A model generated the notes under the pieces. It was not told the DNA's origin. It ran no database searches and saw only the letters and a list, made by a program, of their open reading frames with translations. The position numbers and the translations under genes were made by a program. Of a stretch of 42,287 bases of DNA, positions 1-40,102 are shown in pieces. Source of the stretch: Calditrichota bacterium (GTDB taxonomy: Bacteria; Calditrichota; Calditrichia; JAJRVZ01); the NCBI GenBank assembly GCA_024277055.1, contig JAJRVZ010000047.1, positions 1 to 42,287 on the forward strand, in the 5' to 3' direction. How positions within the stretch are numbered: the stretch's first letter is position 1; each line of letters begins with the position of its first letter.

Positions 1-1651
1 CCAGTTCCCGTATATTTCCCGGCCAAGAATATTTGCAGAGTTGCTGCATCACTTCATCTGAAATTGCGTTTATGGAGCGGTTGTGAATTTTGTTGAATTT
101 TTCAATAAAATGACGGCACAGGTATTCTATATCGCCGGCCCGCTCGCGCAACGCGGGTAAGTGAATATGTACGGTATTCAATCGATAGAACAGATCCGGT
201 CGAAATTTGCCTTCCTTGATCAGAGCATCCATTTTCCGGTTTGTGGCCGCCAGGATTCGAACATTCACGGAAATGGGATTTGGATTCCCCAGGCGCATTA
301 TTTCCCGTTCCTGCAATACCCGCAACAGTTTTACCTGAATGATGCCGGGTATATCGCCGACTTCGTCCAGAAACAGCGTCCCCCCGCTTGCCAGTTCGAT
401 TAAGCCCTTCTTTTTCACGGCCGCACCGGTGAACGCCCCCTTTTCGTAACCGAACAATTCTCCTTCGAGAAGCGTTTCCGGAATGGCGCTGCAATTTACG
501 GCAATAAAAGGCCCTTCGGCGCGGCGTGAATGCTCATGAATCGCCCGTGCTACCAGTTCTTTACCCGTACCCGTTTCCCCGGTAATCAGAACGCTGATAT
601 CGGTCGGGGCAACTCTGCGGGTCAATTCAAATATTTTTTGCATCACCCTGTCCCGGGCAATCATACCGCTGAACCTGAAACGCTCGGCGGAATACAGCCA
701 ATGGTAAAATCCGGCGACCAGTTGTTCAATATCTTTATATCTGCTTTGCAGGTACGAGCGTCTTCTTGACAAATTCAATTTGATGATACTGTTGATACTT
801 TCAACAGACTGGAAAAAGATATTGGGAAATTTGGCTGACGCGTATTGCGCTTTTACGTTTTCAGTCTGGAAAACAAGGTACAGGTTTTCTCTGTAATTTT
901 TCGCAACCTGCACAATATTCTGAATAATTCCATCATCATCATTTTGTGTGTTTATGATAAGCGCCGGCCTGGAAAGAATGTTTTCCAGTTGTGACAATTC
1001 GACAGGAATCAGACTATGTTTTACGGCAATATCATAGGCCTGTGAAAACTTGGAACTCAGCAATTGTGCCGGCTGATGTATTATTGATTTAAAATAACCG
1101 GCGAAACTTAAAACGGTATTTTTATCATGACCGATCAGAATCAGCTGGTGTCCGCTGATATCATCAACTATTTTGCAGGCAATATCCTTTATGGCATCGC
1201 CGGCATTTATGCCGTATTTTTTCATTTCATCACTCTGCAGAACCTGTTCCGTAAAATCGATCGCCAGGCGGTAGAGCTGGGTAAGAACCGGCCCGGAAAG
1301 TTCGAGATCGAGTGAGAGATTAAACGCTTCCTTGTACTGTGTAAGTTTTGCGGGGTCTGCCGCGACAGGATCATGAACTCCCATCATGATTTCAAAAAAG
1401 CGTTTTGCGGCTTCCTGCTGGTGTAATACTGTCGGGTTGGTTACCGAACGATTGAAAACTTCCGCACAGACTGACCGGAGAAAAGGAACCGTTTCGGTTC
1501 CGAAAATAAATATATCATATCTGCCGTTTGAGTTCAGTACAAGACATTCTTCGACACAATGTTCTTCCATTACCGGTTGGATTTTTTCCAGTATATCCGC
1601 TCCGACAGGATTTTTATTACTGTCCGCTATTTCAAAATGTGATAAATACAT
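1..1651 (-). CDS. Sigma54-dependent enhancer-binding protein with an N-terminal degenerate glutamyl-tRNA reductase (HemA)-like domain; 3' end runs off the window
   Basis: Hand translation from ATG 1651 gives 550 sense codons with no stop. Residues ~327-550 carry Walker A GETGTGKE, AVNCSAI, ELFGYEKGAFTGA, Walker B LFLDEV, LLRVLQE, RILAATN, FRPDLFYRL and YSWPGNIREL. Residues 1-321 follow HemA motif order: EECLVLNSNGRYDIF, EAAKRFFEIMMGVHDPVAADPAKLTQYKEAF, SGPVLTQLYRLA, IACKIVDDISGHQLILIG, FPNIFFQSVESINSIIKLNLSRR, LVAGFYHWLYS. The HTH would lie beyond the window. Confidence 0.9.
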   Translation of the reverse strand, partial: MYLSHFEIADSNKNPVGADILEKIQPVMEEHCVEECLVLNSNGRYDIFIFGTETVPFLRSVCAEVFNRSVTNPTVLHQQEAAKRFFEIMMGVHDPVAADPAKLTQYKEAFNLSLDLELSGPVLTQLYRLAIDFTEQVLQSDEMKKYGINAGDAIKDIACKIVDDISGHQLILIGHDKNTVLSFAGYFKSIIHQPAQLLSSKFSQAYDIAVKHSLIPVELSQLENILSRPALIINTQNDDDGIIQNIVQVAKNYRENLYLVFQTENVKAQYASAKFPNIFFQSVESINSIIKLNLSRRRSYLQSRYKDIEQLVAGFYHWLYSAERFRFSGMIARDRVMQKIFELTRRVAPTDISVLITGETGTGKELVARAIHEHSRRAEGPFIAVNCSAIPETLLEGELFGYEKGAFTGAAVKKKGLIELASGGTLFLDEVGDIPGIIQVKLLRVLQEREIMRLGNPNPISVNVRILAATNRKMDALIKEGKFRPDLFYRLNTVHIHLPALRERAGDIEYLCRHFIEKFNKIHNRSINAISDEVMQQLCKYSWPGNIREL

Positions 1652-2476: not shown

Positions 2477-2518
2477 TGTTTCAGTTTGGAATCATACATT
2501 TTGTTTCAAAATTAAACA
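2477..2518. promoter_or_regulatory. Pair of palindromic operator-like sites (TGTTTCA-N3-TGAAACA) between the putative promoter and the ccsA/hemX-like start codon
   Basis: 2477-2493 is TGTTTCA-GTT-TGGAATC (11/14 consensus positions) and 2502-2518 is TGTTTCA-AAA-TTAAACA (13/14). The same motif recurs at 2778-2814. Confidence 0.6.
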
Positions 2519-2565: not shown

Positions 2566-2592
2566 AAAAACCCCCGGTATGTAAACCGGGGG
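2566..2592 (-). terminator. Rho-independent terminator
   Basis: Minus strand reads CCCCCGGT-TTACAT-ACCGGGGG followed by TTTTTG: an 8-bp GC-rich stem plus U-tract. Confidence 0.8.
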
Positions 2593-2655
2593 CTGATCAG
2601 CAAACAACAGGTATTGTTGTTTAGGGAGGAACTGTTGTGGGATAACATTAATAGG
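2566..2655 (-). ncRNA. Candidate sigma54-dependent small RNA (~90 nt) or terminated leader RNA
   Basis: Bounded by a -24/-12-like element (predicted +1 near 2655) and the terminator. Contains the C-rich stretch UUCCUCCCU, a perfect 8-bp hairpin AAACAACA-AUACC-UGUUGUUU (2602-2622) and the terminator hairpin. No RNA family recognised. Confidence 0.5.
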
Positions 2656-2665
2656 GATTTAATAC

Positions 2666-2681
2666 TACAAAATGAATGCCA
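2666..2681 (-). promoter_or_regulatory. Sigma54 (-24/-12)-like promoter
   Basis: Minus strand TGGCATTCATTTTGTA versus consensus TGGCACNNNNNTTGCW. Spacing is exact and the -24 GG is intact, but the -12 element is GT instead of GC. Adjacent to a sigma54 activator gene. Confidence 0.55.
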
Positions 2682-2777: not shown

Positions 2778-2814
2778 GATTTCAATCTGAAACACCGGGT
2801 TTATATTTGAAACA
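2778..2814. promoter_or_regulatory. Tandem palindromic upstream activator sequence candidates
   Basis: 2778-2794 is GATTTCA-ATC-TGAAACA and 2798-2814 is GGTTTAT-ATT-TGAAACA, repeated at 20 bp. They sit about 120-160 bp upstream of the predicted sigma54 start site. Confidence 0.6.
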
Positions 2815-2835: not shown

Positions 2836-4290
2836 TCAGGGGGATAATAATCTCAGCAAAATGGAATTAACAATTTTAGGATTGGCCTTTCCTGCGGATT
2901 TACGCATTACCTGTCCCACGAAAAAACCTATTAACCCGGTTTTTCCGTTTTTGTATGCGTTCACTTCATCGGGATACTCAGCCAGTACTTCTTTTACCAT
3001 GGATTCTATGGCGGAGTCGTCCGAAACCTGAATAAGCCCCATTTCCTTCACGATTACATCTGCCGACTTATCGGAAGTCAGCAAAACATCAAACACCTTT
3101 TTTGCGGCACTGCTGCTTATTTTTCCTTCACGGATCAGTTTCAACAATTCCGCAAATCGTATTTCGGAAATGGGAAATTCTTTAATTTCAATTTTCTTAT
3201 CGTTCAATACCCGCAGTACATCACCGAGAACCCAGTTGCTCACCAGTTTTGCGTCATTGATAATTTTTACGGTTTGTTCATAATAATCCGCCAGTTCTCT
3301 TGAGGAAGTGAGAATTTCCGCATCATATTCCGGTAAACCGTATTGATCCATAAACCGTTGACGACGGACTGCCGGCAATTCCGGTAGCATCTTTTTCAAT
3401 TGCCGTACATAATCCTCTGCAATCTCCAGACGAACGAGATCGGGATCGGGAAAATAGCGATAATCGTGAGCCTCTTCTTTCACCCGCATAATCTGTGCAG
3501 TACCGGATGACGGATCCCACAAAAGTGTGGCCTGTTCAACCGTCCGACCGGATTCCAGCAGTGAAACCTGACGCTGGATTTCGTAGGTCAGTGCATTTTC
3601 TACATTGCGCAGAGAATTCATATTTTTAAGCTCTGTTTTCGTCCCCAGTTCCGTTTCGCCCTTTCTTCGCACCGAAACATTTGCATCGCAGCGCAGGCTG
3701 CCCTGTTCCATGTTTCCATCACATATCCGGAGGTAACGAACCAGTTGGCGGATTAAAGACAAATAGGCGTGGGCCTGTTGCGGCGTTCGCAAATCCGGCT
3801 CCGTGACGATTTCAATTAACGGCGTACCGCAACGATTTAAGTCCACCAGCGAACTTCCCGCGTCTACAAAATCTTCATCGTGCACACTCTTTCCGGCATC
3901 TTCTTCAAGGTGGATGCGATTAATGCGGATAGTGTGCTTTTCACCATCTGTTTCAACCTCAACCCGGCCGTTTTTACAGATGGGATGTTCAAATTGAGAT
4001 ATTTGGTAGCCTTTGGGCAAATCCGGATAGAAATAATTTTTCCTGGCAAAAACATTATGTTCGGATATGGTGCAATTGGTGGCAAGACCCATTTTTATTG
4101 CGAATTCCACCGCCTTTTCATTTAAAACCGGGAGAACGCCGGGCATTCCCAGGCAAACGGGACAGGTCTGTGAATTCGGTTCCGCGCCGAATCGTGCGCT
4201 GCAGCCGCAAAATATCTTGGTAATGGTGCTGAGCTGGGCATGAACTTCGAGCCCGATCACCGCTTCATATTTATCTTCTGAAATAGTCAT
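2836..4290 (-). CDS. gatB: Asp-tRNA(Asn)/Glu-tRNA(Gln) amidotransferase subunit B
   Basis: [54 protein letters not shown] and C-terminal [13 protein letters not shown]. Confidence 0.98.
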
Positions 4291-4293
4291 TGA

Positions 4294-5715
4294 TCACTTA
4301 AAATTTTTCTCTACAAAATCCGCTACCCGAAACAATTTTCCTTCCTCAAACGCATTCGCCATGAATTGCACACCGATGGGCAGACCGGAGGCATCCATAC
4401 CAACAGGAACATTTATTCCGCAGATGCCGGCGAGGTTGGCGGAAACCGTAAATATATCGGAAAGGTACATTTCGAGGGGATCACTGATTTTTTCCCCCAT
4501 GGCAAATGCCGTAGCCGGTGTAGTCGGGGTTAGAATCGTATCAACTTTTCCGAAAGCTTCATCGAATTCTTTTTTGATCAAATGCCTTACCTGCAGGGCT
4601 TTTTTATAATAGGCATCGTAATATCCCGAGGAGAGCACATAGGTTCCGAGCATGATACGGCGACGGACTTCTTCTCCGAAACCGTTTTGCCGGGTACTCC
4701 GGTACATTCCGGCCAGCGTTTCCTGCCGATCATCCCGGTAACCGTACCGTACGCCGTCAAATCGGGCCAGGTTGGAACTGGCCTCGGCCGTTGCGATGAT
4801 ATAGTAAGCGGCGATGCCGAATTCAAGTGTTTTTTCCAGTGAAATTTCAACGATTTCCGCCCCGCTTGCTTGCAGGTAATCGGTAAGTTTTTGCAGTCGG
4901 TCGCCGATCTCTGGCTGGATACCTTTTTCGAGCACCGCCCTGTTTACACCGATGCGTATTCCCCTGATATCACGATTGATGAACGAATGAAAATCCGGAA
5001 CAGGTTCACGACTCGATGTGGAATCCCTTTCATCATGGCCGGAAATTACCCCCAGGATTAACGCTGCATCATCCACGGTTCCGGTCAGTGGGCCGATCTG
5101 GTCCAGTGAAGAGGCAAAAGCGACCAGTCCGAAACGTGAAACCCGGCCGTACGTCGGCTTCAAACCGACGACACCGCTGAATGCAGCCGGTTGTCGAATC
5201 GAACCGCCCGTATCACTTCCCAGTGCGGCCTGTGCCATACCCGCCGCCACTGCAACAGCCGAACCGCCGCTCGACCCGCCCGGTACCCTGGATTCATCAA
5301 CAGAGTTTTTAACATTGCCGAAATATGAGTTTTCATTGGAAGAACCCATGGCAAATTCGTCCATATTGGTTTTACCGATAAAAACCGCTCCGGCATCCGT
5401 CAACTTTCTAATAACAGTGGCATCAAACGGTGAATTAAAGTTTTCGAGGATTCTTGAAGCGCACGATGTTCTGACACCGGCAATATTGATATTGTCCTTA
5501 ATGGCGAATATGGTGCCGGCGAGCGGCCCCGGGTCGGCTCCTCTGGAAATCTCTTCGTCAATCCAGCCTGCTCGTTGCATCGCCCGTTCATTCAGTAAAG
5601 TAATGAAAGCGTTGAGATGTGAATATTCATCACATTTTTTCTGAAAGGATTGAAGGGATTCCGCGGCCGAAAGCTTACCCCTTTTAATTTCCCGAACGTA
5701 TTCACGAAGAGTCAT
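4294..5715 (-). CDS. gatA: Asp-tRNA(Asn)/Glu-tRNA(Gln) amidotransferase subunit A
   Basis: Amidase signature: [73 protein letters not shown]. Confidence 0.98.
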
Positions 5716-36299: not shown

Positions 36300-37292
36300 T
36301 CAGAATTCCAGTAAAAAATTGAATCGGTTCACCGTTCCCAGGCGACCAAAATTGGTGAATGCATAATCCACCCGAACCGTTGCAATGTTCAGTGATTGTC
36401 TTAATCCGAATCCGGCTGAAAAATCCTCTTCGACCTGTGCCGTTTTAAAACCGGCGCGCAATGCCAGAAAACCGTTCCACATATACTCTACACCGAAATT
36501 AATGTTTTCCGAATTGTCATTGGGATGATTGAGTTGTATCGCCGCGGTCAGGCGGTTGTTTTCATCGAATTCAAAATCGTTGGCAATACCGAATCGAAAC
36601 ATCGTGGGCGGTGCGAACGATTGAAAACTGTTTACCGTGTGCGTCCGGTTGTTCAAATCCTTCTGCCGGAAAGAGCCGGTCGGTGTAATGTCCGTTCCGA
36701 AATTGGACAGACTGACAGCAAAGCGGGTATTGGCGAACCCGGTACGGTAGTAAGTACCCAGATCGAACAGCAAAGAGGACATTGAAACTTCGGCAATATC
36801 CTCCCGAGAAGACTTCAGAGTCACTCCGAAGCTGAACTGATCCGTCATTCGTCGTGCATAGGAAACACCGAATAACGCATCGGAAAAGGTGAAATACTGG
36901 CCGGTTCCTAACGGCTGAAAAACAGTGGTTTCTTCCATATCGGCCATGTGCAGATAAGTAAGAGAAAAGCCAATGGTGTTCAGGGCGTCCAGGTGATACA
37001 CAATTCCCGCATTTTCGATTTTTACATCCACCACCCATTGGGTATGGTCGAAATAGACCTGGTTTTCGGTGAATTGCGCCAGTCCGGCAGGATTCCAGTA
37101 CAAGGCGCTGGCATCGTTTGCAACGGCGATGAAGGCCTGCCCGAAAGCTTCGGCCCGGGCACCGACGCCGATTTTCAGAAACTGTGCACTTGAAGTGCCG
37201 ACACGCTGCGCGCCCAAAGTGGGCAACAGCTGCGCCTGCAGCAAAAAAGGCAACAGAAAAAAAGCCAGTATGTAGGATGTGCGTTTCATCAT
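36300..37292 (-). CDS. PorV/PorQ-family outer-membrane beta-barrel protein
   Basis: Signal peptide from MMKRTSY (ATG overlaps the upstream TGA); AQFLKIGVGARA..ANDASALYWNPAGLA, INFGVEY..LALRAG, VDYAF, C-terminal Phe. Confidence 0.85.
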   Translation of the reverse strand: MMKRTSYILAFFLLPFLLQAQLLPTLGAQRVGTSSAQFLKIGVGARAEAFGQAFIAVANDASALYWNPAGLAQFTENQVYFDHTQWVVDVKIENAGIVYHLDALNTIGFSLTYLHMADMEETTVFQPLGTGQYFTFSDALFGVSYARRMTDQFSFGVTLKSSREDIAEVSMSSLLFDLGTYYRTGFANTRFAVSLSNFGTDITPTGSFRQKDLNNRTHTVNSFQSFAPPTMFRFGIANDFEFDENNRLTAAIQLNHPNDNSENINFGVEYMWNGFLALRAGFKTAQVEEDFSAGFGLRQSLNIATVRVDYAFTNFGRLGTVNRFNFLLEF

Positions 37293-40102
37293 CAAAACTC
37301 TACCGATAAGCCGGCTCTGATATTCCGGGGATTCTTGTAACGTGCCGGGTTGTAGGGAAACGGACTGCTGATCGGCCATGAAACATCCGGAAAAAGCGGG
37401 TCATTCCAGCTGGAAGGTACGGGATCGCCGTATTCATAGGCGCGTCCGGTTACCGGATTTACAATATTTGTGTTTTTAAAATTAAACAGGTTCAGTATTT
37501 CAAAATACAGTGTTAATCTTGTATTCAAAAAAACATTATAATATTTTTCAAATTTCAGGTCGGCCCAGCTCCAGATTCCGGCAATTTTGCTGAACTGATC
37601 CCCTTCGTCACGGGAAGTTGAATATAACGGTTGTCCGGTCAGCGGATCATTCTGATCGAAAACCGCCGGGGTGTAACGCTTGCCGGCCATGGCCAGCCAG
37701 TAAAAATTTATATTCCAGCCGGTGGGCATATCAATGCCGAAAAGCTGCCATTTGTCATTTTCCGGATTAAAATAATTCAGGCTCAGATTAGCCTGCCAGG
37801 GACGATCCCACACCGCGAAGGTTTCGCGGATCGGTTCTTCTTCAATCACCCCGAGATAGATCAGGTCCTGAACATTCGGAGACGAATTTTTGGTTGTGAT
37901 AATTGAATAGGAGCCGCCGACGCCGGCACTGAAATTTCGCCCGATTCGAGTGCGGTAATCCACCTCTATTCCCCGTGAGCGCGCATAATCCAGATTCAGA
38001 TAAAATACGGCCGAACCGATACGCGGAATGCCGCGGATCGTCGTGGTTTGGATATAGTCGAATATATCTTTGTAATACGCGGTTATACTGAGCACATCAT
38101 TTTCGGTAAATTTATTTCGGATACCCAGTTCGTAAGCCACCGTTGTTTCCGGATTCAAATTGGGATTGCCGAATTTCTGAAACGAGCCGCTGGCGCTGGT
38201 CGGGCCAAGTTTTGCGTAAACGAACTGCGGCTTCGGCCATTTCGAAAAGTGGCCGTAGTTGAAGAACAACATCATATTGTTGGAGACAGGATGGCTGACT
38301 CCGATCCGCGGACTGATTCGCATTTTATAATGGCGGTCAAACAGGGTAAAAGTCTCGTTGCGGTATTGCCGGCGCATGGCAGGCGTGAGAATGAACAGCG
38401 AAGTATCTTTTATCGCATCGTCCACATATTTCCCGGGAAACCAGTAGTCGAGCCGAACGCCTGCATTCAGAATCATGCCGCTGAAGGTAATATCGTCCTG
38501 CACGTAGGCGCCTCCGATCGCCGGAAAAACACGGTAGATATCCTGGCTGCTGCCCCAGCCGTTATTAAGATAGGGGGCAACGATATCGATCAGTTGCATT
38601 TCCTGCACACGCGATTCGAAACCTATTTTAATCTGGTGGTCTTCCAGTGCATGACTGGTAAAGGTACCTTTCAAGGTCCATTCGTCAACAAAATGATCAT
38701 GCCAGAAACTTGCTTTCCCGCCGTCATAGAATCCGTCCCCGGGTACGACACGAACCCGATTGCTGTCCGGATACCAGTACTGTACCGGCAGGCGGGTGAC
38801 ATCCTGGGCCCGCGAGTAGCTCGTCCAGTGCCCATTGTCGCTGCGCAGGTTGGTAAAATAGCGGCTTAACTTCAGATCGAAAAAATTTGCCTTGTCCAGG
38901 GTATGCGTCCAGCTGAAGGACAGCTGATCGTTGTTGTGGGTAATGGTGTTAAAATTATCCAGAATCTGCGAATACTGATACGGAAAGCCGGGATTCGGGG
39001 GTTCGTAACTCTGCCGCGTTTGCAGTGATTGTGTATTTTGATTTATTGAAACCGACTTGTTATAGGTAAGAACGAATTTATTTATAGGGTTCAGTTTCCA
39101 GGTGAGTTTGAACAAACCGGACCAATTATTGTTCTGCCGCGGCGCAAAACGGGTTCCGTAAAAAATGGAAGAATTCAGTTGTTTCGCTGCGGTACGGGTA
39201 TAATCATCCGATATAAACATGTACAAATTGGTAAAAATGTAAAACTCACCCGGAAGGTCAAGCCCAAGAAAAGGAAACAGTTTGGCGCTTATCGGTTCCG
39301 GACCGCCGAATGTCATTTCAACAATATCCGAATTGAAACTGAAGGATTGATCACGAAACATACCCAGGTGATCCGATTTATAGGAAAAGGAACCGGAATA
39401 GGTGTCACCACCCGATTTGGTTCGTACATTGATCACACCGGAAGTCGCCTGTCCGTATTCTGCGCGGTAACCGCCGGTCATTACTTCGACTTCTTCGATG
39501 GCATTTTTACTGAGATTCAATCCAAAACCGGTACCGGCCAGGGGGTCCTGTACGGAAATATCATCCAGCAGGTAGGCCGTCTCGTGTGTGCGGCTGCCGC
39601 GAATATGAATCTCGTTATCCGTTTCAACCACACCGGTTTGCTGGGCGATCAGTCCCTGAACGTTTTCAATGGCCTTCCCTGCTATCTCCGCCCCGCTGAT
39701 TGTCTTTGAGCTGGCTGTTTCCTTTATATCAAAAAGCGGTTTTTCACCAATAACCACAATTTCCTGTCCCAGGGCCAGAATGGTCGGTTGCAAAGAAATA
39801 TTCACTACCGAGTTCTTTCCGGCTTCAACCTTTACGCCGGTGCGTTTGGTCACTTTATACCCGACAAACTGGATTTCCAGCGAATATTCCCCCGATTTTA
39901 CATTTTCAATAAGATAAAACCCCTCCAGATCGGTAGAAGCGCCGAGATAGGTACCCTCTACTGAAATATTGACCCCGATCAGCGGTTCACCGGTTTCGGC
40001 GTCGCTGATTACGCCGGATATTTTACCGGGTTGGTTTTGTGCGAAAAGATAAACGGACAGAATCATGAACAGGTATAATCGTGAAAATTTCATAGGCATC
40101 AC
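37292..40102 (-). CDS. TonB-dependent receptor with N-terminal carboxypeptidase-regulatory-like domain
   Basis: GKISGVISDAETGEPLIGVNI, plug IHIRGSR and GGYRAEYGQATSGVIN, ISPRIG, GNPNLNPETTVAYELG, C-terminal PRNIRAGLSVEF. Confidence 0.92.
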   Translation of the reverse strand: MMPMKFSRLYLFMILSVYLFAQNQPGKISGVISDAETGEPLIGVNISVEGTYLGASTDLEGFYLIENVKSGEYSLEIQFVGYKVTKRTGVKVEAGKNSVVNISLQPTILALGQEIVVIGEKPLFDIKETASSKTISGAEIAGKAIENVQGLIAQQTGVVETDNEIHIRGSRTHETAYLLDDISVQDPLAGTGFGLNLSKNAIEEVEVMTGGYRAEYGQATSGVINVRTKSGGDTYSGSFSYKSDHLGMFRDQSFSFNSDIVEMTFGGPEPISAKLFPFLGLDLPGEFYIFTNLYMFISDDYTRTAAKQLNSSIFYGTRFAPRQNNNWSGLFKLTWKLNPINKFVLTYNKSVSINQNTQSLQTRQSYEPPNPGFPYQYSQILDNFNTITHNNDQLSFSWTHTLDKANFFDLKLSRYFTNLRSDNGHWTSYSRAQDVTRLPVQYWYPDSNRVRVVPGDGFYDGGKASFWHDHFVDEWTLKGTFTSHALEDHQIKIGFESRVQEMQLIDIVAPYLNNGWGSSQDIYRVFPAIGGAYVQDDITFSGMILNAGVRLDYWFPGKYVDDAIKDTSLFILTPAMRRQYRNETFTLFDRHYKMRISPRIGVSHPVSNNMMLFFNYGHFSKWPKPQFVYAKLGPTSASGSFQKFGNPNLNPETTVAYELGIRNKFTENDVLSITAYYKDIFDYIQTTTIRGIPRIGSAVFYLNLDYARSRGIEVDYRTRIGRNFSAGVGGSYSIITTKNSSPNVQDLIYLGVIEEEPIRETFAVWDRPWQANLSLNYFNPENDKWQLFGIDMPTGWNINFYWLAMAGKRYTPAVFDQNDPLTGQPLYSTSRDEGDQFSKIAGIWSWADLKFEKYYNVFLNTRLTLYFEILNLFNFKNTNIVNPVTGRAYEYGDPVPSSWNDPLFPDVSWPISSPFPYNPARYKNPRNIRAGLSVEF

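Follow-up and report, generated by a model that had tools for sequence, protein, structure and literature searches.

The stretch of DNA hereafter called the window, 42,287 bases from the start of contig C366 in the genome assembly of a Calditrichota bacterium (G000, GCA_024277055.1; 3.96 Mb, 386 contigs, 88.8% complete), begins with a gene in which an apparently inactive homologue of glutamyl-tRNA reductase (GluTR, the hemA product) is fused to the motor of a sigma54 enhancer-binding protein (EBP). Directly upstream lies a gene for a HemX-like membrane protein, with which the fusion gene is predicted to be co-transcribed. We propose, with a probability of roughly 0.6, that the GluTR pseudoenzyme activator and its membrane partner constitute a heme-responsive sigma54 switch. 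Heme is likewise considered the probable signal, and the architecture and regulon of the fusion, as described below, are very likely correct.

An earlier note on this DNA, made from its letters and a listing of open reading frames (ORFs), had described an uninterrupted 550-codon frame at the window start with a complete EBP core and an intact GAFTGA motif in its C-terminal part. The frame is indeed there: it opens with an ATG at position 1651 on the minus strand and is free of stops through to the contig start, and it was missed by the ORF track because it appears only in lists that include open-ended frames. Pfam matched the protein to Sigma54_activat (PF00158, residues 331-497, 235 bits) and AAA_lid_14 (residues 502-550), with Walker A (GETGTGKE, 358-365), GAFTGA (405-410) and Walker B (LFLDE, 426-430) all intact. 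The N-terminal part gave a borderline match to GlutR_N at residues 26-137, with 25.6 bits for the whole protein, 27.0 bits for residues 1-325 alone and 28.5 bits in a six-frame genome search, the cut-off being 27; the same domain was found in nine of 15 fusion-family members at E <= 0.01. No GlutR_dimer match was found in the fusion protein with Pfam. NCBIfam models matched the AAA+ part only, all of them far under their cut-offs, leaving the N-terminal 320 residues uncovered, and one family member bears an NCBI name that reads only "sigma 54-interacting transcriptional regulator".

Residues 1 to about 320 of the fusion are a GluTR/HemA homologue. BLASTP of residues 1-325 against the genome's own HemA gave a collinear alignment of 294 residues (E 1e-13, 20% identity) that extends as far as the spinal-helix Trp, and hhalign of 15 fusion N-terminal domains against 15 canonical HemA sequences gave a probability of 99.96% (E 4.6e-39, 305 columns). 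An AlphaFold2 model of the domain, for which the 15 fusion-family sequences were the only input, reached a pLDDT of 88.7 and a pTM of 0.79. When this model was compared with the PDB by Foldseek, the top seven matches were all GluTR chains (1gpj, E 3e-15, TMq 0.66; Arabidopsis GluTR entries 5yjl, 5che and 4n7r at about 1e-11), followed by Rossmann-only matches (dipicolinate synthase A, shikimate dehydrogenase and others) with E values of at least 5e-5. A feature search of the ESM Atlas returned GluTR clusters only (0.92). The similarity to GluTR of the first ~321 residues, which the earlier note had read by eye and put up for checking by profile and structure, was thus recovered by every route. 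A HMMER scan of 1.84 billion representatives with the GluTR-like domain yielded 262 matches at E <= 1e-3; among the 150 matches listed, most were HemA proteins of about 420-450 residues, and nine of 529-675 residues aligned from the N-terminus and in every case continued into a sigma54 AAA+ core. Eleven of the 150 sequences were retrieved, these nine among them; one further long match (P0095) is an ordinary HemA with a different N-terminal domain.

For a residue census, the N-terminal domains of 21 fusion proteins were aligned with 15 canonical HemA sequences, and positions conserved in at least 14 of the 15 enzymes were examined. The nucleophilic Cys of STCNRTE is retained in none of the 21 fusion proteins; in the window protein the corresponding stretch is LVLNSNGRYDIF (residues 37-48), with Asn42 at the Cys position. 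Of the residues that flank the Cys, Thr is kept in one, Asn in two and Arg in one fusion protein, the last being the window protein itself (Arg44). From the GE.QI motif Glu114 is never kept and Gln116 twice. The nucleotide-binding loop GxGxxG, which reads GHDKN (residues 174-178) in the window protein, has its first Gly (Gly174) in 20/21 proteins, its Ala in 2/21 and its second Gly in 1/21, and both the Pro and the Arg of DxAxPRD are lost throughout (0/21 each). Residues that maintain the fold are retained, namely Gly174, Arg297 (18/21) and Trp318 (21/21). The alignment with GluTR stops at the invariant Trp318, and the activator linker and Walker A follow directly, with the GluTR dimerisation domain absent; this agrees with the earlier proposal that the dimerisation bundle had been exchanged for an AAA+ domain right after FYHWLYS (315-321). 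The other motifs singled out at that time, RFF (84-86), GVHD (91-94) and ADPAKLTQYK (98-107), were also located.

The census supports the view that the N-terminal domain is a catalytically dead GluTR, the three defining tests for the enzyme being negative and the fold being kept. The idea of a GluTR pseudoenzyme serving as the input domain of an activator is thereby backed by fold, residue loss and fusion to the sigma54 core; that the domain senses something is what we infer. The earlier note had named heme, Glu-tRNA or a partner protein as the signal. A partner now comes to the fore, in the shape of a HemX paralogue in a heme context, and Glu-tRNA has been rejected for want of conservation at the substrate site. 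Pairing with the true HemA into a heterodimer was weighed too and seems unlikely, given the missing dimerisation domain. Within the family E35, F48, F85, G120, K160 and W318 are invariant. As a separate observation, a Lys that is invariant in all 15 canonical HemA proteins is Glu in 16 of the 21 fusion proteins (Glu135 in the window), a charge reversal specific to the family.

Both genes for which a check had been advised were found in the genome: a canonical hemA on contig C16, as a 456-residue ORF with STCNRTEIY and GAGETA in the order ccsA-like gene (hemX type), hemA, hemC, and rpoN on contig C378 (203 bits). Full-length relatives of the fusion have 615-681 residues and end in HTH_8 (PF02954 in P0151-P0154; a conserved C-terminal helix in the alignment). 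The window copy is cut at residue 550 by the contig end, which presumably accounts for its lack of this DNA-binding domain. The continuation of its 3' end was not found in the assembly; contig C358, which starts with an activator C-terminus, was considered and rejected, as its AAA+ part differs from that of the window and belongs to another paralogue.

A profile search of 86 genomes of the phylum gave matches in 58, which were sorted by the surrounding open frame. By our reading, 27 of the 86 genomes contain fusion-type frames, 22 of them intact (615-681 residues) and five cut or broken, all high-scoring (G000 at the contig end, G074, G077, G004 and G005); all other matches are HemA proteins with some 425-467 residues. 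The fusion is present in 7/10 genomes of family f1, 8/10 of f3 and 12/16 of f6, and was not found among those of f5 (26 genomes), f2 (17), f4 (4), f7 (2) and f8 (1). A tree built from 21 fusion domains and 17 HemA sequences has one branch (SH-aLRT 99) that parts the two sets, so that the fusion domains may have a single origin; their branches are much longer. The nearest loci carry record labels of Calditrichia or Calditrichota metagenome-assembled genomes (MAGs). Further loci were gathered by a scan with the HemX-like alignment (A3), and similar gene pairs occur in MAGs labelled Cytophagia, Ignavibacteria, KSB1 and Bacteroidetes (L034-L037, L039, L040), labels that are unverified; two near-identical loci bear different phylum labels.

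The cut window copy and the broken frames in G004 and G005 could be taken as signs of a chimeric assembly or of a pseudogene in decay. This reading has a negligible probability and is already refuted for the fusion family, judging from the sequences, given that the same junction recurs in the 22 intact frames of other genomes and in metagenome proteins, and that the AAA+ motifs of the window copy are all intact. An assembly artefact at the junction, or absence of the fusion from relatives, had been named earlier as the points to check, and the recurrence of the junction in many genomes answers both. As for the broken copies themselves, the gene is split in two relatives of the same family, L016 (G004) and L012/L029 (G005), into 379 + 233 residues in one and by several stops in the other; they could be pseudogenes or sequencing errors.

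The HemX-like gene has its stop codon 3 nt before the ATG of the fusion and is a paralogue of the hemX gene upstream of the true hemA on C16 (27% identity, E 4e-22). In 15 loci (the window and 14 fetched contexts), it is placed directly upstream of the fusion in 12, absent in two (L022, L026) and unjudgeable in one (L025) that is situated at a contig start. A crude hydropathy profile shows eight hydrophobic segments. Loops rich in Lys and Arg lie at residues 18-33, ~86-88, 158-178 and 234-241, and the WWD motif (residues 205-212) is in a loop on the opposite face. Three His residues (His46, His129 and His268) do not vary across the family. The HemX-like profile matches solved CcsA chains (25vk, E 8.7e-15; 7s9y, E 1.8e-8), the alignments pairing the WWD motif and two of these His residues; the two His presumably correspond to the outer heme ligands of CcsBA. 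Four other proteins of the Cytochrom_C_asm family, three of about 750 residues and one of 257, are encoded in the genome, so the hemX-type genes are not its only such proteins.

A complex of the HemX-like protein and the GluTR-like domain was predicted from alignments of 10 (A3) and 15 (A2) rows, respectively. The ipSAE was 0.62 (0.63, 0.62 and 0.62 in separate runs) as compared with 0.00 for the best of three controls, a mark that is reached by 58/80 solved complexes and 2/110 mismatched pairs. The runs share at least 97% of their contacts, and the pLDDT of the partner is at least 79. Residues 153-174 and 236-241 of the HemX-like protein are predicted to contact residues 157-164, 254-255 and 273-292 of the GluTR-like domain. 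The contacting HemX-like stretches fall largely within the Lys/Arg-rich loops, which are cytoplasmic according to the positive-inside rule, and the GluTR-like domain was put on the cytoplasmic face without prior instruction. When enzymes and pseudoenzymes are aligned together, Ile161 never varies and Lys160 is conserved to at least 90%. To our knowledge, there is no solved complex of HemX with GluTR. According to a 2018 paper, HemX had no known partner (PMC5801465). On the strength of the model, we lean slightly towards a direct binding of the GluTR-like domain by the HemX-like protein.

The GluTR-like domain could instead itself bind heme or a tetrapyrrole intermediate and gate the AAA+ motor directly, leaving the HemX-like protein as a co-expressed accessory, for example in membrane heme handling. 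GluTRs of several organisms bind heme, with Salmonella Cys170 and S. aureus GtrR as the cases cited in two sources (PMC5801465, PMC10991733), the activator occurs without an adjacent hemX-like gene in L022 and L026, and conservation at the interface of the modelled complex does not significantly exceed that of the other residues (permutation p 0.08 and 0.19). Yet none of the His, Cys, Met and Tyr positions is invariant across the GluTR-like family, so that no potential axial ligand is maintained, the hemX-like gene is tightly coupled to the fusion in 12/15 loci, and the complex prediction passes its controls. Direct gating by a ligand of the domain is therefore regarded as unlikely.

Which genes the activator may control is suggested by the neighbourhoods of its relatives. 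A TonB-dependent receptor (~700 residues; Plug, barrel and CarboxypepD_reg) adjoins the gene pair in 9/15 loci, divergent from the hemX-like gene in L015-L019 and downstream of the activator in L020, L021, L022 and L027. The receptor is followed by a gene of the HmuY family in 7/15 loci (Pfam 92.5 bits in L018, 49.3 bits in L021), and the locus labelled Ignavibacteria (L037) also has a receptor and an HmuY-family gene (34.1 bits). Two unannotated families, both lacking Pfam and NCBIfam matches, stand in these neighbourhoods and are candidates for further parts of an uptake system: a 702-residue protein encoded after the activator in L023/L024 (11,4xx-13,6xx), and proteins of 163-189 residues encoded between promoter and TonB receptor in L022/L027/L065.

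The strict -24/-12 pattern TGGYAY-N5-TTGY occurs 16 times in 22 loci (676 kb with both strands counted), a survey that omits copies (L030-L033, L038, L041) and ordinary hemX-hemA loci (L042, L043). Eleven of the occurrences are at the junction of regulator and receptor, one per locus. In the 300 nt that precede these promoters, the palindrome TTTCA-N3-TGAAA is found in 8/11 cases when exact and in 10/11 with at most one mismatch, lying 107-112 nt from the promoter in seven; the background of exact palindromes in the surveyed loci is 0.07 per kb. One locus (L017) has heptamer repeats only and no palindrome. When five whole genomes were searched for the palindrome followed by a gap of 90-120 nt and the promoter, six matches were obtained as compared with none for the reversed pattern. 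Four were known junctions, one precedes a small gene and a TonB receptor elsewhere in G020, and the last stands in front of canonical hemX in G001.

The regions upstream of canonical hemX were then compared between the C16 locus plus 10 other fusion-bearing genomes and six fusion-free genomes. The palindrome is present in 9/11 of the former, often as two copies 20-21 nt apart, and in 0/6 of the latter, and a promoter with at most one mismatch in 7/11 as compared with 0/6; the two sets of genomes come from different families and several fusion genomes are close kin, so this contrast is confounded by kinship and overstates independence. In the two fusion genomes without a palindrome, one has no site (L050) and in the other there is no hemX within the fetched stretch (L051); in L053 and L054 the palindromes are present and a promoter candidate was found only by eye at two mismatches. 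On C16 itself (~42,390-42,520; L001 2870-3010, minus strand), the palindrome of the hemX-hemA-hemC operon occurs as TGTTTCAGACTGAAACA together with a third heptamer, and a sigma54-type promoter with one mismatch follows ~120 nt downstream, inside the 5' end of hemX as called by the ORF listing. The true start of that hemX is probably a later Met, by the look of the sequence.

A system that senses and imports another tetrapyrrole, such as a corrinoid, with hemA control serving tetrapyrrole synthesis in general, would fit some of these data. HemA feeds all tetrapyrroles, and the best NCBIfam model for one of the receptors is a B12 receptor (227.6 bits versus 196.6 for the heme receptor), with B12 and heme models nearly equal for a second, all scores being under the cut-offs. 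The HmuY-family genes that follow the receptor in 7/15 loci speak against it, as does the nature of the partner, a heme-handling protein of CcsA type with a WWD motif, and we consider it improbable.

The regulatory region of the window, between gatB and the hemX-like gene, is a spacer of ~365 nt that holds both kinds of element (Table 1).

Table 1. Features of the window referred to in the text (positions in the 42,287-nt stretch; +, forward strand).
Feature	Position	Strand	Remarks
Gene for GluTR-like sigma54 EBP	2..1651	-	550 codons; 3' end (~90-130 codons, presumably including HTH_8) lost at contig end
Inactive GluTR/HemA-like input domain (predicted), residues 1-325	677..1651	-	Catalytic-domain fold, Rossmann domain without Gly loop, spinal helix to Trp318
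Sigma54-interaction AAA+ core and lid, residues 331-550	2..661	-	Walker A, Walker B and GAFTGA intact
HemX-like gene, CcsA family, 271 residues	1655..2470	-	Cytochrom_C_asm, PF01578, 94.3 bits
TGTTTCA heptamer pair	2477..2508	+	Directly upstream of hemX-like ATG, reading away; position (taken as ancestral) and orientation of an enhancer as in same-family relatives
G+C-rich hairpin and T run, terminator-like	2566..2593	-	~65-90 nt downstream of sigma54-type promoter; RNAfold z -3.58
Sigma54-type -24/-12 promoter TGGCATTCATTTTGT	2667..2681	-	Reads towards hemX-like and activator genes
Candidate enhancer (upstream activating sequence), TGTTTCA-N14-TGTTTCA	2780..2814	-	Second copy lies in palindrome TTTCA-N3-TGAAA

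The candidate enhancer is situated 111 nt upstream of the TGGCATTCATTTTGT promoter, which is the geometry seen at the receptor promoters of relatives. The assembly as a whole contains 88 matches to the strict promoter motif and 33 exact copies of the palindrome, and only one pair in which the palindrome precedes the promoter by 40-300 nt, that of the window; the C16 promoter is not among strict pairs owing to its one mismatch. A TGTTTCA pair on contig C23 was set aside as a chance occurrence, since it seems, judging from the sequence, to be within a coding frame.

Between the window promoter and the strong hairpin there are ~75 nt with a small hairpin, and RNAfold folds the ~90 nt after the promoter into two hairpins, the second of which is terminator-like. 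A consensus terminator scan did not report the hairpin at 2566-2593 (8-10 bp), though it apparently satisfies the stated rules of that scan. No Rfam family reached its gathering score in the window, and no similar copy of the spacer was found in the genome or the fetched loci. The promoter may either autoregulate the operon of the hemX-like and activator genes through the terminator or yield a short RNA, and the stretch from promoter to hairpin may correspond to a small RNA or to a leader of that operon with attenuating function, or it may be what is left, as promoter and terminator, of a receptor operon since lost.

Since the sole strict pair of the assembly faces the regulator's own operon, which fits autoregulation, the dead GluTR domain might be no sensor at all and serve as a signal-free module for oligomerisation or spacing, with the activator controlled through its own expression. 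This is rather implausible: the dimerisation domain, i.e. the part with which GluTR makes its dimer, is what was discarded, and the domain has been maintained across a deep divergence (16-28% identity) along with its membrane partner.

In this genome only, the genes directly upstream of the hemX-like gene are gatB and gatA (2836-5715, minus strand), encoding subunits of the Glu-tRNA(Gln) amidotransferase; they stand in the place of the receptor, HmuY and one more gene in relatives, and genes farther upstream (tatA, purQ, purS and others) keep the order of the relatives. That a Glu-tRNA-using enzyme is encoded beside a GluTR relic is probably a coincidence. The window also encodes a 936-residue TonB-dependent receptor with CarboxypepD_reg (37292-40102, minus strand), far from the regulator, near which the genome-wide scan found no palindrome-promoter pair.

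Taken as a heme-responsive switch, the system could have arisen and worked as follows. A hemX-hemA pair presumably was duplicated, and the enzyme copy would have shed its catalytic function together with the dimerisation domain and acquired a sigma54 motor. The HemX-like copy would read the heme status at its outward-facing WWD/His site, with its cytoplasmic loops (residues 153-174 and 236-241) binding the GluTR-like domain (residues 157-164 and 273-292). With plentiful heme the activator would be kept inactive, by membrane sequestration or destabilisation; with scarce heme the free activator would assemble on the palindromic enhancer and open sigma54 promoters of genes for heme uptake and heme synthesis. 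Activation at low heme is given slightly less than even odds. It is suggested by the targets, which comprise both routes of heme supply, synthesis and uptake. More tentatively, we suggest that a feedback pair was duplicated whole and turned into a transmembrane pathway, in which the HemX copy reads heme, a loop-to-helix contact controls the dead GluTR, and sigma54 output goes to hemX-hemA and the import genes.

Several observations weigh against this proposal, in addition to the interface statistics, the missing invariant ligand residues and the kinship of the fusion genomes given above. The direction of control is deduced only from the logic of regulating synthesis and uptake together. The receptors remain under all NCBIfam cut-offs, and the one best matched by a B12 model has already been mentioned. 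The -12 element is mostly TTGT, the textbook form being TTGC. In the window genome no receptor follows the promoter and no HmuY-family gene was found in the assembly (88.8% complete), and hence the link to uptake rests on the relatives; a receptor of this genome may lie beyond the contig end. Finally, heme binding has never been shown for HemX, the studied HemX proteins included (PMC5801465).

Several known systems are related to the one proposed here. NtrC-family activators that are held by a partner protein include PspF, by PspA, and NifA, by NifL. The fusion resembles the EBPs of this family in its sigma54 AAA+ core with GAFTGA, in the HTH_8 of its full-length relatives and in a palindromic enhancer ~110 nt from a -24/-12 promoter, and it resembles those under partner control in that its activity is presumably checked by a second protein. 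It differs from them in its input domain, a GluTR pseudoenzyme instead of REC, GAF, PAS, V4R or none, and, as compared with PspF-PspA and NifA-NifL, in the presumed partner, an eight-helix membrane protein of the CcsA family. With GluTR structures (1gpj, 4n7r, 5che, 5yjl) the domain shares the three-part fold up to the spinal helix, the helix with Lys-Ile before the Rossmann strand, Gly174, Arg297 and Trp318; unlike GluTR, it has neither the nucleophilic Cys, the substrate-site residues and the GxGxxG loop nor the dimerisation domain.

Uptake of heme by HmuY/HmuR is known from Bacteroidota, and heme-responsive regulators include Irr, HssRS, HrrSA and Has extracytoplasmic function (ECF) sigma signalling. 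As in these systems, a TonB-dependent receptor and an HmuY-family protein appear to be regulated, and uptake and synthesis would be matched to heme status; none of Irr, HssRS, HrrSA or Has ECF signalling is known to be a sigma54 activator or to use a GluTR-like domain.

In heme-replete Bacillus and Staphylococcus, HemX lowers GluTR abundance by a mechanism that is described as unknown in the two sources (PMC5801465, PMC10991733). The pair described here is like HemX-GluTR of Bacillus subtilis and Staphylococcus aureus in that a CcsA-like membrane protein is encoded beside a protein of GluTR fold in heme homeostasis (PMC5801465, PMC10991733), and the window genome holds the canonical pair as well, as hemX-hemA-hemC. 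In the Firmicutes, however, the abundance of an active enzyme is lowered post-transcriptionally, whereas here an inactive copy would give a transcriptional output through its AAA+ domain. The gene order also differs, being hemA-hemX in Firmicutes, and a hemX-like gene followed by the GluTR-like gene here.

The statement of the earlier note that no regulator of this architecture was known agrees with our searches: no published description of a GluTR-sigma54 regulator was found in the open literature, judged by titles, most subscription journals being outside the scope. The papers that name both GluTR and sigma54 are gene lists, and those that name GlutR_N do not deal with regulators, going by their titles. 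Likewise, no paper linking HmuY with sigma54/RpoN and, by title, no relevant pseudoenzyme EBP was found among the matches listed.

The fusion would represent an unreported input module of sigma54 activators, a pseudoenzyme that seems to control the operon of its own enzyme paralogue. As a case of regulatory evolution, it suggests that an existing contact between a regulator and its target was reused and no new ligand pocket had to be invented. The way in which HemX controls GluTR, still unknown according to the 2018 paper and a 2024 review (PMC5801465, PMC10991733), becomes testable, as the same two folds are found in a conserved gene pair with predicted interface residues. If the predicted contact is ancestral, HemX loop 153-174 set against the helix of K160-I161 would be the first concrete picture of the way in which GluTR is engaged by HemX in Bacillus and Staphylococcus. 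For the Calditrichota, the genes described here would be the first regulon to be assigned to heme homeostasis, and one whose promoter and enhancer are defined.

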